Source: an uncultured bacterium (GTDB lineage Bacteria > Zixibacteria > MSB-5A5 > GN15 > FEB-12). Taken from it: a stretch of DNA of 64,000 nucleotides. Where the stretch lies: assembly GCA_965372795.1 (NCBI GenBank), contig CBDVDR010000017.1:1-64000 (forward strand), read 5' to 3'. The position numbers were made by a program. This document shows, one piece after another, positions 30,001 through 36,000 of this stretch. Position 1 is the stretch's first letter; the number at the start of each line of letters is the position of its first letter.

Positions 30001-33000
30001 TGATTGTAAACTTCTTGAAATTGCAAAGTATCCTATTGGAATTTTATCATCTTCATTCGAATTTATTTCATTAAATATCTCACAATCAATAAGAAGATTA
30101 TTTACGAATCTAATAGTTGTTCTTGGATTGTTTCCGCACGCTGTACCAATAATTGGCAAAATTACTTTAAATGCATCACTATTCTCTATCTCTAATTGCT
30201 CAATCAAACTATTTGAGAAGTTTTCCATTCGTTGGTCATGAGGTGGAATTGGAAAAGGTAACTGCACCATTTTGTCTAAGTATTTACTCCCCTCGTCACC
30301 TTTTAGCCCAAATTCTTTCTCAAACCTATGTTGCAAATATCCTTCAATAATTGTTCTGGCAACTCCAAGTATGAATACGAAACCCTTTTGTGATAGAACT
30401 AATTTGATGCTTTCAAGTAGCTTGACAGCGTTATCTGGAAAACATCTATCCAAATCATCTATTAGTACTACGACTTTGAATTCAGAATCAATCTCAATCT
30501 TTGAAAGAGTTTCAAATGCATCAAAATATAAACTTTTATCAAGCAAAGGATCAGTTCTCTGTTTATCACTATGATCGATCATATCTTTCGCAACAAATCC
30601 TGCTTCTATTTCAGCAAAACCCGGAATCTTTATTTTTGATTTTGCCGAAAATCCATAGGCAACTGCTTTTAATCCTCTAACAAAAGATTTAAGTTGTCCT
30701 TTAAGCTTTTGGTCTTCACTTTTAAAATTTTCTAATCCTTGTACAATAGTTGCAACAAGGGGTACAATAGGATGATCTTCCTGTTCAAAACGCCAGGCAT
30801 TAAACCAAATCGTAATAATATTATTATTTTCCTCTAAATGCTTTTGAGTCAGTCTCAACAGGCTGGTCTTGCCTGAACCCCATTCACCGAATACACCTAT
30901 CGTAAATGGTCCGGTCGTTCCAGCCGCCGCATCGCCTAAAACTTTTGCATAAGTATGAAATCCAAGCCCATCTGTCTTAGAGTTATCATGCTCGCCGATT
31001 GCTTGATCTGATAATAATTTGAGTTTTCCCATTTTCCCTCTCGTTTATGAGGATTAGTTTTAGCCTCACATTTTATTTAAATGTACAAACAAGTCCCCCA
31101 CAAATCAAGACCTTTCCCACCACAAAAAAAGGCAGTCCGCCTTGGTGGACTGCCCTACTTAAATCTAACACTGGATTCCTGCTTTCGCAGGAATGACAAT
31201 TTGCTTTACATGCGAAGCAATAGACTAACCTCGTTAGTGGCTATGCCACTCGACACATGCGAAGCATCAAACCGATTATATCGGTGTCACCTAGTACCAT
31301 TTGGGGACGAATTTGTGTCCATAACTGATCACGCCATGATGCGCCTCTTTCTGGACCAGTCGGAATTCCAAACGGACTTCCATTCCGATCTTGACTTCCT
31401 CAACATCACAATCCGTCATCTGTCCAAAGACACGAGTACCATCGGTCAGCTCAACAATTGCCAACGCATAAGGACCCAAATCACCCCATTCTGCAGGAGC
31501 AATCCGTATCACAGTAAAGGTTACGATCTTGCCGGTATCAGGAAGGACCACCGTTTCCGATTCGGTCTCGCCTGTTTTGGGATCGATCAAGCGTTTTGGA
31601 AAATATACGTTTCCGCTTTCTTTGAACTTGCATGCTTCACGGCGGTAACGCTGGGGATATTCACGCCAGTTACGAGAACTAAACATAGTCATTACGCCAC
31701 CTCCATGATATGGACAACCGAAGAACCACCGGAACCACCCATGTTCTGAGTCATGCCGATTTTAGGTGAGCCGGGAATCTGACGCCCGTTCTCAGCCTGT
31801 CCGGTTAACTGTTTGTACGCTTCGACCATTTGTGCAACACCGGTTGCACCGACCGGATGACCTTTGGATTTCAAACCGCCGGATGAGTTCATCGGGAACT
31901 TGCCATCAAGTGCGGTTTCACCGGCAAGGATCGCCGGACCGGCTTTACCCGGTTCAAAGATTCCGATAGATTCAGCGACAATTATTTCAGCAATAGTGAA
32001 ACAATCATGCACTTCGGCAAACTGCATATCTTTGATAGTTTTGCCAGCCATCTTAAATGCCCGATCAGCGGCGATAGTAGCGGCTTTGATGGTTGTCATA
32101 TCTTCACGCTGGGCCAGCTGAATGGTATCAGTGCCGACACCGGTGCCGATGATTTTGATATATGGTTTACCAAGTTTCTTGGCAACTTCTTCAGATGTTA
32201 AAATAACAGCTGCGGCACCATCGGTGATTGGTGAACAGTCTAAAATATGAAGCGGATCGGCAACCATGACAGAATTGGCGACCTGTTCCATTTTAAGTTT
32301 GAACGGATACTGTGCCACCGGATTCATCGAACCGTTAAAATGGTTCTTCACTGCTACAGCCGAAAGCATATCACGAGTCGTGCCATACTTGGCAATGTGA
32401 ACATTCGCCATCATAGCATAGAGTCCCGGGAAGGTTGCGCCGTGGAAAACTTCATATTCCTGATCGGCGGCGGCGGCAAGTGCCTGAGTGGCTTCTTCAC
32501 CGTCACAGTCGGTCATTTTTTCAACTCCGGAAGCCATCACGATGTCTGACATCCCTGAGGCTACTTCGATAAAGGCTGCCCGGATTGCCATTCCGCCCGA
32601 GGCACAAGCTGCCTCAACGCGCATCGCCGGTAATCCCGACATACCCATGTAATCAGTTAACAATGAAGCCAGATGTTCCTGTCCGACAAACATACCACCG
32701 GACATACAACCGGTATACATTCCGTCAAGATGGTCAACTCCAGCATTTTTTATCGCTTTAAGAGCGGCATCGGTGTGGAGATCACGAAGTGACTGTCGCC
32801 ATACTTCGCCCCACTTACTCATACCAACGCCAACTACACAAACATCTCTCATATCATTCACTCCTAATCGTTCTTGATGATTTTGTGTCTGAACTTGGCG
32901 TAGGTGCCATAGTCGATGTAGGTCAAATTCTCCTCGAGAAGCTTTTGGGTTTTAACCGCAAGGTCTCGTACTTCGTTGATGCGATCAGTTACTTTCCAGA

Positions 33001-36000
33001 TGAAAGCATCCGATCCCGCACCCGAACCATAGGAGCACATAAAGATCATGTCGCCCGGCTGGGAAACATCCAATGTAGCCGTTAAGCCGATTGGTGAGGC
33101 ACCCGAGTAGGTATTACCCAGTGTCGGAGCCAGCCAGCCCGGATCAATCTGTTCCTGCGTGAAGCCAAGTTCAAATGCGACGCGCTGGGGGAATTTACCG
33201 TTAGGCTGATGGAAAATAGCATATTTGAAATCAGATGGTTTCATTCCGGCTTTTTCCAATATAGCATTTGATGCTCCTTTGGTGTGAGCAAAGTAAGCTT
33301 CTTCACCGGTGAATCGTCCGCCATGCTGGGGATAGAACTGGTGTTCTCTCCGCCAGAAATCAGGCATATCGGTCATGTATGAATGAGTATGTTCAATTGA
33401 TGCGATCACATTATCATTACCCATAATAAAAGCACCGGCACCGGCAGCAGCAGAAAATTCAAGGGCATCCGAAGGAGCACCCTGAGAGGTATCAGCTGCG
33501 ATTGCCAGAGCATATTTCATCTCGCCTGCTTTGATATGGCTAAGAGCAACATACATTGCCTCTGAACCGGCTTTACAGGCAAATTCAAAATCAGCACAAT
33601 GAATATCCGGGGTCGCGCCGAGTGCTTCGGCAACAGTTGTACCGGATGGTTTTACGGCGTACGGATGAGATTCCGAGCCGATATAAATTGCTCCGATATC
33701 TTTTGGATCAACTCCCCCGGAACGCTTGAATGCGTTACGGGCAGCCTCTACAGATAACGTAATGGTATCCATATCCGGCGGAGGGACAGATTTTTCACGA
33801 AGCATCAGTCCTTTTTTGTAACTTGGGGCATCGGCTCCCCATACCTTAGCGATCTCTTCCACCTTAATCCGATGTCTGGGAAGATGGGCGCCATAGCCAA
33901 CAATTCCTGCCATAAGAGCCTCTTATATTTTATAGTTCTATTTAAGTGTCCAATTTCAAAAAACGTACGAAATTCAATAATAACCGTTTCTATGCGAAAA
34001 ACAAGTTTCGGACGATAAATATTGTGAAAATATTATTTATGTGATCTTAAAAAATGTTTTATAAGAGGGCTTTACAATTTGAAAAGCAGGATAATATGGG
34101 TAATAAATTAATTCAAACCGATGTAATTAGTAAGGTTCAGGATGCCGATAATAATAATTATGCATAAGAATATATTATTTCTCTCAATAATTATCATTGC
34201 AACTATTACTTTAGGCGACAGCCTGTTTGCCGTTGATAGTTATGAGGTTACGAGCACGCCTAATAAAGACACTCAGTTTGACAAAAATACTGCTTTCTAT
34301 GAAGGTGACTCGCTCAACTATATTTTCTCTCCCCCGGATGGATTTAAACTGGAGCTTGAGCCGGCGATAAACGATGGTTATTCGTTCGCTTTCATTAAAG
34401 AAAATGAAAAGTATAGTTCATCAGATGTTACCCTTACGATCAATATATTCAAACTGGAAGCTAACCAGTATAATTTTGATATTGAGGGATATATCACCCA
34501 TGACACCTCATCAATCAAAGATCATTTTGGCACCCATGTCGTTATTGATCAGATAGATTCGATCTTCAATTCCAACGGCAGAGAAATCACAACTTACTAC
34601 ATCAACGACAAAACCAGGTTTATTCCGAACGTGATGATTTCTTATTATAATGCCGGTAATGAGTTCTTGATATTCGAACTTGTTATATCGCCGGGATATC
34701 CCCGTTTTCAGGCTGAGGATGAATATATCGCTATGATCCGCAATTTCAAGACCCTCATTAAAGGCAGTTTTGGCAAAAAGCCATAGTCTCCCCTGTTTCA
34801 GATTTGCAACCTTTCAATAACTTACCCGTATATCTATATTATAAGAGGAAAAAAATGTGAGAGGTAGTTATGAAAAGGTTATCAATCTATTTACTGATGG
34901 GGTTGCTGTTGTTTGCCTTTGTGGGTCCTGTTGAAGGTAAAACCAGCAAGTACAAAAAAAGCAATCGCGACTATGATCGTTATGACAGTAAGACTTCAAT
35001 TGACATTGAAGATGGTTCGGTGATCGTTGAGTATGATGATCGTAAAACTTATGACAAAATAGAAATCACCGAGGATTACGAATTATTTATCAATGACGAT
35101 CTGATTGATTGCAACGCCGACCAGACTAAACTGGTCAAAGAATTCCATACCAAGGTTTTTAAGATTAAAAAGTATGCCGTCAATATTGGCTGGGAGGGTG
35201 CGAAAATTGGTGCCGAGGGTGCCAAGCTCGGACTTAAAGCTATTGGTCGGGTTATAAAACTGATCTCGGCTGATTATGATTCGGATGATCTTGAGCGTGA
35301 CATGGAACGTGATGCCAAGAAGATTGAGAAGAAAGCTGATAAGCTTGAAAAAAAGGCTGAGATAATTGAGCGTATGGTTGAAGATCTTGACGATCTCGCC
35401 TATGAGATGAAAGAAGAAATCCCGGAACTTGATGAACTCGATTGGTTTTGGTTATAGCCCACACCCTTCGGGTGTTTTATTTAAATAATTAGATCAGTTG
35501 GTTTGTTTGACAAGTGGTTTAGGTTGATATTTGTGATTAAGGTTTGAATCTTCCACGCAATTTGTCTGTAGGCAGGTATCATTGATACCTGCCTTTTTTT
35601 ATTGTTAAATTCTCACTTGAATTGTAATAATTGATTACATATACTATTACCAATGCAGAAAAATAATAGTAAAAAATGTATCGGTAGAAATCTAAACTTT
35701 AAACGATGTAATCGATCAATAAATCGGGGATTCTTTTGCCATGACCATAATAGGCAACCCGTGAGATTCCTATATTCAACAGTTATGTTATTACTAAGCA
35801 TTATGGCTTTTTTTTCATATTGTATTCCACCTTCACAAACAATTCAAGTTCAATCAAATCATGAGAGGGATCTTATCATTTGTGATCATTATTCTTTAGC
35901 TCTTAGTTTATTCTTAGCAAGATTTAGATTTAATTTATATATGCTTCCCCTATCAGATCCAATAGAAACTACAATTTTAGAAGCATTTCAACCTGGAAAA

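Follow-up and report, generated by a model that had tools for sequence, protein, structure and literature searches.

The window examined here comprises 64,000 nucleotides of contig CBDVDR010000017.1 from an uncultured bacterium of the Zixibacteria. It carries three nearly abutting minus-strand genes, for an HMG-CoA synthase, a thiolase and a small DUF35 protein (the trio; Table 1). In profile searches the synthase scored above the archaeal-type cut-offs (TIGR00748, 512 against 353 bits; PRK04262, 515 against 244) and below the bacterial-type cut-off (TIGR01835, 114 against 360 bits). The thiolase exceeded the PRK06064 cut-off (521 against 420), and the small protein matched the DUF35 OB-fold PF01796 with 72.6 bits. 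The best PDB match of both the synthase (431 bits) and the DUF35 protein (95 bits) was 6ESQ, which, with 6ET9, we take to be the methanogen thiolase/HMG-CoA synthase/DUF35 complex of Vögeli 2018. For the thiolase, 7YVY came first (378 bits) and 6ESQ second (358 bits); PhlA-type proteins matched the synthase with 199-206 bits. Our literature search found no paper describing this operon.

Table 1. Features of the window around the trio, in order of position
Feature	Position	Strand	Remarks
Branched-chain amino acid transaminase IlvE	2911..3849	-	
Two acyl-CoA dehydrogenases	7668..8825, 8829..9971	-	isovaleryl-CoA the putative substrate of one
3-Hydroxybutyryl-CoA dehydrogenase	9983..10846	-	
Ordinary bacterial thiolase	10867..12054	-	
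Biotin carboxyl carrier subunit	14367..14876	-	start uncertain; open frame to 15023
Biotin carboxylase subunit	14860..16380	-	
Crotonase-family hydratase	16388..17173	-	best PRK07468, PRK05674, under cut-off; interpreted as methylglutaconyl-CoA hydratase
ORF of no known family	17174..17824	-	216 aa; not seen here in other loci mapped
Carboxyltransferase	17830..19437	-	535 aa; taken, on family and gene order, as the beta subunit of methylcrotonyl-CoA carboxylase
AtuA-family protein	19440..21245	-	601 aa; model matches both CmlAB subunits; candidate HMG-CoA:acetate lyase
Variable AT-rich DNA	21300..31050	.	34.8% GC; cysteine synthase-like gene, MscS, KAP NTPase, ORFs of no assigned family
Terminator-like hairpin	31129..31156	-	10 pairs and T run, 135 bases past DUF35 stop; identified by pattern alone
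DUF35 (ChsH2 OB-fold) scaffold protein	31291..31692	-	133 aa; zinc-site cysteines replaced by F23, S26, D37, T40
Archaeal-type acetyl-CoA acetyltransferase (thiolase)	31692..32861	-	389 aa from GTG; C86, HDCF 285-288, GHP 334-336
Archaeal-type HMG-CoA synthase	32864..33913	-	349 aa; E81/C113/H235/N267 intact

Catalytic residues and known relatives of the trio

The four catalytic residues of the synthase were invariant in all 131 distinct homologues. In the thiolase the motifs CxS (C86-A-S), HDxF (H285-D-C-F) and GHx (G334-H-P) are all present, with C86 and H335 kept in 123 and H285 in 122 of 124 homologues. Judged by these residues, the trio looks catalytically intact, and homology suggests that its products assemble into a genuine complex of thiolase, HMG-CoA synthase and DUF35 protein. 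The first-pass annotation, which had described a real trio with its E-C-H-N tetrad kept, is borne out. The true start of the thiolase may be Met4, invariant in relatives, rather than the GTG. The hairpin pattern was found five times, against 3.5 expected by chance.

With the methanogen complex the trio shares its three partners, the adjacency of the genes, the archaeal-type synthase, the tetrad and the thiolase motifs. It differs in its bacterial host, which has MEP genes and no reductase, in its tie to methylcrotonyl-CoA carboxylase, in the loss of the zinc-site cysteines of DUF35 in the host's family (all four in the host), and probably in a reversed direction of work. Among 116 DUF35 homologues these cysteines were absent in 48, complete in 62 and reduced to one or two in six. 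The four-cysteine zinc ribbon is present in 6ESQ; a need for it was not established here. Bacteria also share the three-gene scaffold in the Friedel-Crafts acylases PhlABC and MucABC and in the P. fluorescens ACAT/HMGS-DUF35 system. According to passages of PMC12960953, those proteins lack the tetrad, PhlC and MucB lack HDxF, and the bacterial versions of the complex examined to date no longer carry out HMG-CoA chemistry; as had been claimed earlier, the host proteins are unlike them, since tetrad and HDxF are both intact. Nor did the scanned proteins of the window include a recognisable PKS or NRPS.

Linkage to methylcrotonyl-CoA carboxylase and replacement of the trio

The linkage was followed through a sample of 151 genomes of the phylum. 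The archaeal-type synthase occurs in 121, and the three-gene order was found in all 55 neighbourhoods fetched from these, which were picked for long contigs and family spread. Synthase and carboxyltransferase are both present in 118 genomes and lie on one contig in 86; in 83 of the 86 the synthase is located at most 15 kb upstream of the carboxylase on the same strand. In 50 just the thiolase and DUF35 genes lie between synthase and carboxyltransferase, 19 are at 2.3-5 kb, 14 at 5-15 kb, and three are otherwise arranged. The trees of the two proteins agree (Mantel r 0.81 with 61 rows, 0.72 with 59 rows), and the same gene order recurs in loci titled Acidobacteria, Eisenbacteria and Phycisphaerales. 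In relatives the trio belongs to a putative leucine-breakdown gene cluster. The tie to the methylcrotonyl-CoA genes, which the first-pass annotation had proposed without a test in relatives, is thus confirmed. In the host the operon is split by 10 kb of variable DNA, missing in most other families, that separates the trio from the carboxylase genes. The Liu-type enzymes fit by family and gene order, with no substrate-specific model above its cut-off. Some trios (those of families f7, f13 and f17, and some of f1) are located away from the carboxylase.

At least one of trio, AtuA and cluster-type HMG-CoA lyase is present in 136 of the 137 genomes with the carboxylase: 89 carry the trio only, 25 trio and AtuA, 15 AtuA only, four an unlinked trio with a cluster-type lyase, and three the lyase only. 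The one genome with none has a contig that ends at the thiolase gene. Of the 14 genomes without a carboxylase match, 11 have none of the three. In families f6 and f7 the order is carboxyltransferase, hydratase, carboxylase, carrier and HMG-CoA lyase, the last scoring 354-406 bits, above 246, in the four scanned; the carboxylase is divergent there (about 60% identity), so that this cluster may have arisen independently. Carboxylase clusters without the trio contain a cleaving-type enzyme (HMG-CoA lyase or AtuA), which points to consumption of HMG-CoA; the earlier suggestion that the trio feeds HMG-CoA into the methylcrotonyl-CoA genes is not supported in that wording. Within family f1, 22 genomes have both trio and AtuA, 19 the trio only, 12 AtuA only and none neither (Fisher p 0.002), although this displacement rests on kin, with two to four independent pairs on a 26-row tree, and is then not significant. 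The pN/pS of the synthase is 0.134 both with and without AtuA (15 genomes), so selection is not relaxed beside AtuA. As 25 genomes, the host included, keep both under equal selection, neither of trio and AtuA simply duplicates the other; the pair could make up a cycle that hydrolyses acetyl-CoA.

AtuA had been overlooked by the first-pass annotation as a candidate lyase. Its assignment follows from a PF07287 match of 498 bits and a Foldseek E value of 2e-24 to 9EVF_A. With citramalate lyase CmlAB (9ERQ/9EVF) and Pseudomonas AtuA it shares the AtuA family, and its model covers both Cml subunits in one chain; it differs in having only 15-17% identity (15% with CmlA) and in its putative substrate, HMG-CoA or a longer isoprenoid analogue. 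It is a candidate HMG-CoA:acetate lyase, with a predicted fold like that of the acetate-releasing citramalate lyase. Two papers disagree on isohexenylglutaryl-CoA lyase, assigned to AtuA in PMC4847356 and to LiuE in PMC4097962. In all 38 cases with both on one contig, the AtuA gene comes immediately before that of the carboxyltransferase, and one genome (G137) keeps it with only residues 1-202 of the synthase and no thiolase or DUF35 nearby.

Compared with a Pseudomonas-type Liu cluster, the host shares carboxyltransferase, hydratase, biotin carboxylase with carrier, and acyl-CoA dehydrogenases, in the order of the lyase-bearing f6 and f7, but has trio and/or AtuA in the cluster in place of LiuE and a ScoAB-type CoA-transferase. 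Members of the ScoB family, which activates acetoacetate, were found in 16 of 151 genomes, all in f6, f7 and f10 and not in the host; trio- and AtuA-type clusters thus probably release no free acetoacetate. A second HMGL-family gene, which could cleave HMG-CoA, occurs in 18 genomes; it opens a separate four-gene unit in the seven fully mapped, with CoA-transferase and aconitase-like genes in the two scanned.

HMG-CoA enzymes of the host genome and the phylum

In the host genome (98.65% complete), searches with positive controls found neither HMG-CoA reductase nor mevalonate kinase; AcnX was also not found, and the MEP genes DXR and IspG are present. This supports the absence of a mevalonate role in this genome, as first annotated. 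The same statement does not extend through the phylum: reductase occurs in 20 of 151 genomes, 11 of them without DXR. These 20 hold a cluster of IDI-2, a reductase-kinase fusion, decarboxylase and kinase (two clusters annotated, eight mapped), and the bacterial-type synthase (TIGR01835) was found in none of the 151 at E 1e-45. In the 11 DXR-less genomes no synthase besides that of the trio was found; with reductase present and DXR missing, the trio may work forward there. The claim that the host has no HMGL-like protein stands as far as the HMGL fold goes (no HMGL-like domain, no PF00682 or PRK05692 match, hence no LiuE) and needs correcting in that AtuA, whose fold is different, probably cleaves HMG-CoA.

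Direction of the complex

Since the trio sits in the putative leucine-breakdown cluster of relatives, it probably runs backwards. We consider it about an even chance (roughly 0.5) that the complex ends leucine or isovalerate breakdown by converting HMG-CoA and two CoA into three acetyl-CoA. Leucine would pass to isovaleryl-CoA via IlvE and a 2-oxoacid oxidoreductase, and on to HMG-CoA via acyl-CoA dehydrogenase, biotin carboxylase and hydratase. HMG-CoA would then acylate Cys113 of the synthase, retro-aldol cleavage would release acetoacetyl-CoA, and CoA would accept the acetyl group; immediate cleavage of acetoacetyl-CoA by the partner thiolase would pull the reaction. The net yield would be one thioester (about one ATP) above that of lyase routes, with AtuA in the host as a second, irreversible exit to acetate and acetoacetyl-CoA. 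Backward reaction of the S. aureus HMG-CoA synthase was reportedly seen by Theisen in 2004. With +26.1 ± 1.7 kJ/mol for the thiolase and −16.9 ± 15.8 kJ/mol for the synthase (PMC7264872 Table S5), the forward sum is +9 ± 16 and the reverse −9 ± 16 kJ/mol, which allows the reverse, with an error that covers both directions and a reverse reaction unfavourable at low CoA/acetyl-CoA ratios. The background is that of an amino-acid fermenter (VorB, IOR and butyrate kinase were found), which the lack of IlvD and of a LeuA fold, given below, also fits. Weighing against this reading are the 25 genomes with both trio and AtuA, the kinship behind the f1 displacement, the 11 DXR-less genomes with a reductase cluster, the second HMGL-family genes, the divergent f6 and f7 carboxylase, and the low identity of AtuA to CmlA together with the two conflicting lyase assignments.

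HMG-CoA synthase is regarded as working only in the biosynthetic direction, and its physiological reversal, if true, would parallel the known case of reversed citrate synthase. It would give energy-limited microbes about one ATP extra per leucine and supply a step now missing from metabolic reconstructions of Zixibacteria and, probably, of further phyla, and AtuA would gain a role as HMG-CoA lyase of a second fold. With only slightly less confidence, many uncultured amino-acid-fermenting bacteria may run the channelling complex in this thioester-conserving direction, as one of three interchangeable ends beside the AtuA acetate lyase and the classical lyase. Because the step is near equilibrium, the same operon may also go forward to isovaleryl-CoA, leucine or mevalonate in this phylum, where the usual branched-chain amino acid synthesis is lacking.

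A less probable reading is that the complex has the same forward direction as in archaea, with the cluster operating as a reversed leucine breakdown, from acetyl-CoA through HMG-CoA, methylglutaconyl-CoA and methylcrotonyl-CoA (carboxylase reversed) to isovaleryl-CoA, for iso-fatty-acid primers or, via VOR and IlvE, leucine; in the host, breakdown would then fall to AtuA, and synthesis to the trio with its separate transcript end. VorB- and IlvE-type enzymes, both present here, are reversible. The cluster would then resemble the alternative isovaleryl-CoA route of Myxococcus xanthus, which, according to passages of PMC9636800, joins HMG-CoA synthase to leucine-pathway intermediates. That route runs through MvaS, LiuC, the decarboxylase AibAB and the reductase AibC; it differs in its bacterial-type synthase and dedicated decarboxylase, where the phylum links biotin carboxylase. 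Forward synthesis is the sole activity given for the complex in the passages of PMC12960953. Canonical leucine and valine synthesis is missing, with IlvD in none of 151 genomes (and none of five further genomes whose loci bear the title of another phylum or no phylum title), LeuB in none of 151 over its cut-off and no LeuA fold in the host. The strong selection on the synthase beside AtuA, the hairpin after DUF35 and the 11 DXR-less genomes suit forward work as well. Against it, 12 genomes of the host's family have AtuA with no synthase over the cut-off and no LeuA-like cluster, so a forward route is dispensable there, and a LeuABCD-like cluster also occurs in 18 of 121 synthase genomes. Without IlvD, cells probably take up their valine and isoleucine from outside, along with leucine; no Na+-pumping decarboxylase beta subunit was found in the five genomes tested; and the partners replacing the trio are of the cleaving type.

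It is unlikely that HMG-CoA from the trio goes into a product unrelated to leucine metabolism, such as mevalonate (via a reductase that escaped recognition) or a unit of the methylglutaryl type, and that the linkage reflects just a shared HMG-CoA pool. The 20 genomes with the IDI-2 cluster and no bacterial-type synthase, the trios away from the carboxylase and caprazamycin synthesis, which makes methylglutaryl units from HMG-CoA, would fit; yet 101 of 121 synthase genomes lack reductase, the host has DXR and IspG but neither mevalonate kinase nor AcnX, the surroundings of the trio show no conserved gene for another HMG-CoA consumer, and 89 carboxylase genomes would be left without a cluster-type way to cleave HMG-CoA.

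Slightly less probable again is a backward reaction with hydrolysis of the acetyl-enzyme to acetoacetyl-CoA and acetate, a plain lyase substitute chemically equal to AtuA and without energy gain, in line with the acetate that Theisen is said to have seen released in 2004 and with all linkage and displacement data, but leaving unexplained the 25 genomes that keep both enzymes under equal selection and the thiolase and scaffold retained in 55 of 55 loci. In the complex, thiolase and scaffold share a CoA site, according to part of PMC11522927.

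Trio identity and catalytic residues

The host genome of the contig under study (C17) comprises 3.35 Mb and is 98.65% complete. The synthase and the DUF35 protein of the trio both found their best match in the methanogen complex (6ESQ), which ranked second behind 7YVY for the thiolase. The first-pass annotation had described the catalytic tetrad as intact, and this was borne out: E81, C113, H235 and N267 are invariant in all 131 distinct synthase homologues. The thiolase motifs are retained in 122-123 of 124 homologues. Passages of PMC12960953, for which 1,030 bacterial three-gene clusters were mined, state that HMG-CoA synthesis requires these residues and that the bacterial complexes tested have lost them, all being tetrad-less. 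The 1,030 clusters may include Zixibacteria-type trios; names of this type were not found in the text or the five supplement files of that paper. A Friedel-Crafts acylase identity of the trio is ruled out by the intact motifs. Unlike in the methanogen complex, none of the four zinc-site cysteines is kept in the DUF35 protein of the window and its family, where F-S-D-T/N stand in their place. Among 116 homologues, 62 carry all four cysteines and 48 none. Family f7 holds a divergent, unlinked trio (L117-L119, 55-57% identity) whose DUF35 protein is cysteine-free as in family f1.

The complex itself is known, and its proposed role in a pathway appears to be new as far as the searchable literature shows. 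This role was not described in the literature searched, a set that omits most subscription papers, or in the available passages of bioRxiv 10.1101/2024.07.05.601840, PMC4682846, PMC7306690 and PMC7495880.

Location of features in the window and in loci (L), contigs (C) and genomes (G) of the phylum sample
Feature	Location	Strand	Remarks
Trio: archaeal-type HMG-CoA synthase, archaeal-type thiolase, DUF35 protein	window 31291-33913	minus	profile and structure-database matches
HMG-CoA synthase	window 32864-33913	minus	
Thiolase	window 31692-32861	minus	
DUF35 protein	window 31291-31692	minus	
Counterparts of carboxylase-cluster genes	window 2911-21245		
AtuA	window 19440-21245		candidate HMG-CoA lyase
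Tandem pair of 349-aa paralogues	window 21355-23572		no Pfam, NCBIfam or PADLOC match
KAP-family NTPase	window 29311-31032		QatA/PifA-like matches; immediately after trio
UbiA-family prenyltransferase	window 39362-41875		downstream of uppS and cdsA, position of dxr in many bacteria
Gabija-type defence pair	window 43835-47731		GajA 839 bits, GajB 544 bits
Second thiolase of trio type	C47:307-1479 (G000)		distant (30%); on 1.9-kb contig
Lower mevalonate cluster	L251:6567-11855, L252:6338-11600		770-aa class II HMG-CoA reductase/mevalonate kinase fusion
IlvC	L280:8248-9177 and relatives		
LeuA/C/D/B-like cluster	L290:6917-11397, L291:5455-9742		next to thiolase, CoA-ligase or 2-oxoacid oxidoreductase genes
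Four-gene unit headed by HMGL-family gene	L238:4411-7869, L239-L244		in scanned loci followed by CaiB-type CoA-transferase and aconitase-like large/small pair

Association with the carboxylase genes

The association of the trio with the putative methylcrotonyl-CoA carboxylase genes is real and conserved. Synthase and carboxyltransferase occur together in 118 genomes, on separate contigs in 32 and on the same contig in 86. A link to leucine-type genes had been proposed and left unchecked in relatives; it holds there, with the synthase ≤15 kb upstream on the same strand in 83 of these 86. Neighbourhoods of 20 kb were inspected around 55 of the 121 synthases, picked for long contigs and family spread. 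All 55 loci keep the order synthase-thiolase-DUF35, and 44 carry carboxyltransferase and hydratase ≤13 kb downstream. Eleven families share a gene order that runs from synthase, thiolase and DUF35 through carboxyltransferase and hydratase to biotin carboxylase and biotin carrier; further downstream often come a thiolase, hydroxybutyryl-CoA dehydrogenase and two acyl-CoA dehydrogenases, in some cases with ilvE. The window counterparts are separated from the trio by a variable, AT-rich stretch of ~10 kb. The synthase tree was concordant with the carboxyltransferase tree, with a Mantel r of 0.81 (61 rows) and 0.72 (59 rows, f7 left out; FastTree). In a promoter scan, the number of sites was not above chance.

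The same gene order was found in loci titled Acidobacteria, Eisenbacteria and Phycisphaerales. MAG record titles are unreliable; one 'Acidobacteriota' synthase nests within a Zixibacteria clade of the synthase tree. Five source genomes of such loci, four of them under the above titles and one named just 'bacterium', showed a reductase in 0/5, DXR in 4/5, an HMGL-family gene in 1/5 and IlvD in 0/5. An operon variant at L205, L210 and L216 consists of the trio, a hydratase and a 2-oxoacid:ferredoxin oxidoreductase, with no same-strand carboxylase adjoining.

Mevalonate pathway and amino-acid metabolism of the host

Searches of the own genome, with positive controls matched per family search, returned no HMG-CoA reductase, mevalonate kinase, AcnX or HMGL-fold protein, in agreement with the earlier claim that a mevalonate pathway is lacking. 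A mevalonate role of the trio was therefore rejected for this genome, as was a ketone-body cycle, since neither HMG-CoA lyase nor ScoB is present. DXR and IspG are both encoded, the dxr gene lying on another contig. Within the phylum sample (n=151), the synthase exceeded the cut-off in 121 genomes, while a reductase was present in 20 and DXR in 139; a bacterial-type HMG-CoA synthase was found in 0/151. All 20 reductase genomes carry the archaeal-type synthase and nine of them DXR as well, and the reductase is present in all but one of the 12 genomes that lack DXR. Because the reductase occurs only in genomes with the archaeal-type synthase, with 11/12 DXR-less genomes among the carriers, we conclude that a minority of the phylum gained the lower mevalonate pathway on top of a pre-existing HMG-CoA pool. 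The two annotated reductase clusters contain IDI-2, the reductase-kinase fusion, a decarboxylase and a kinase. Reductase, AtuA and any HMGL-family match are all missing from 61 synthase genomes, 60 of which carry the carboxylase.

An amino-acid-fermenting lifestyle of the host is suggested by the absence of IlvD (0/151 genomes) and of any LeuB over the cut-off (0/151), together with the presence of VorB, IOR and butyrate kinase. IlvC was over the cut-off in 140/151 genomes despite the absence of IlvD. Valine/isoleucine synthesis, which IlvC would suggest, was rejected, since neither ilvB nor ilvD could be recognised next to it in the five regions listed and IlvD is missing throughout; the own genome has a single acetolactate-synthase-like gene, below the cut-off. 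IlvC without IlvD may be a ketopantoate reductase. A dehydrogenase linked to a LeuA/C/D/B-like cluster was observed in ~31 genomes in which IlvD is absent.

Alternative partners and direction of the reaction

The 137 carboxyltransferase genomes carry the trio only (89), trio and AtuA (25), AtuA only (15), an unlinked trio with a cluster-type lyase (4), this lyase only (3) or none of these (1, where the contig stops at the thiolase gene). Among the 14 genomes without a carboxyltransferase match, 11 have neither trio nor AtuA nor cluster-type lyase; the other three comprise two fragmented assemblies and a genome in which a gene is split. In f6/f7 clusters the HMG-CoA lyase lies downstream of the biotin carrier, and the acetoacetate-activating ScoB-type CoA-transferase is confined to f6, f7 and f10 (16/151 genomes). 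Wherever AtuA and the carboxyltransferase share a contig, AtuA immediately precedes it (38/38). Its position in several f1 genomes is the site held by the trio in sister genomes, and G137 combines AtuA with a remnant of the synthase. The f1 carboxylase genomes divide into trio with AtuA (22), trio only (19), AtuA only (12) and neither (0; Fisher p 0.002). Since a 26-row tree holds just 2 to 4 independent pairs, this displacement is a pattern rather than a significant test.

A profile of 111 AtuA-family proteins matched CmlA of citramalate lyase (9ERQ/9EVF, E 6e-13). Single-sequence prediction of the window AtuA reached a pLDDT of 35, so the alignment-based model (pLDDT 95) was taken, whose match to 9EVF is stronger for chain A (E 2e-24) than for chain B. 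AtuA is tentatively described as hydroxy-isohexenylglutaryl-CoA:acetate lyase in a passage of PMC4847356, whereas one of PMC4097962 credits this step to LiuE. By analogy, AtuA acting on HMG-CoA would yield acetate and acetoacetyl-CoA, with no CoA-transferase required.

As both alternative partners, AtuA and lyase, are of the cleaving type, the trio would most likely cleave HMG-CoA too. We favour the reverse direction and give a probability of about 0.5 to a backward net reaction in which HMG-CoA + 2 CoA would become 3 acetyl-CoA. For this conversion −9 ± 16 kJ/mol was computed, the sign in the cell being set by the CoA/acetyl-CoA ratio. Theisen reportedly described a backward reaction of HMG-CoA synthase in vitro in 2004. 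Table S5 of PMC7264872 lists the thiolase at +26.1 ± 1.7 kJ/mol and the synthase at −16.9 ± 15.8 kJ/mol, and the two steps would be coupled via the shared CoA site that a passage of PMC11522927 describes for the complex. The ATP-driven carboxylase would raise HMG-CoA, and the reverse trio would yield one thioester above either lyase. Forward operation, with flux to isovaleryl-CoA, would suit a phylum in which the usual branched-chain synthesis is missing and has a precedent in Myxococcus (passage of PMC9636800), but 12 f1 genomes lack both the synthase and a LeuA-like cluster, and this cluster is present in 18/121 synthase genomes, which speaks against this direction. A backward reaction with release of acetate seems highly improbable.

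Codon likeness to ribosomal genes (trio 89th-98th percentile, AtuA 13th) was discarded as evidence, since the lowest score belonged to VorB and the bias as a whole is very weak. No relaxed selection on the trio beside AtuA was found in 15 genomes, where pN/pS with AtuA present or absent was 0.13, 0.19-0.21 and 0.22-0.23. Because the own genome and 24 others keep both and selection on the trio is unrelaxed, the trio does something beyond AtuA; this extra function would be energy saving or forward operation. A second HMGL-family gene, separate from the cluster, occurs in 18/151 genomes, and the four-gene unit headed by an HMGL-family gene perhaps serves a citramalate/itaconate-type route.
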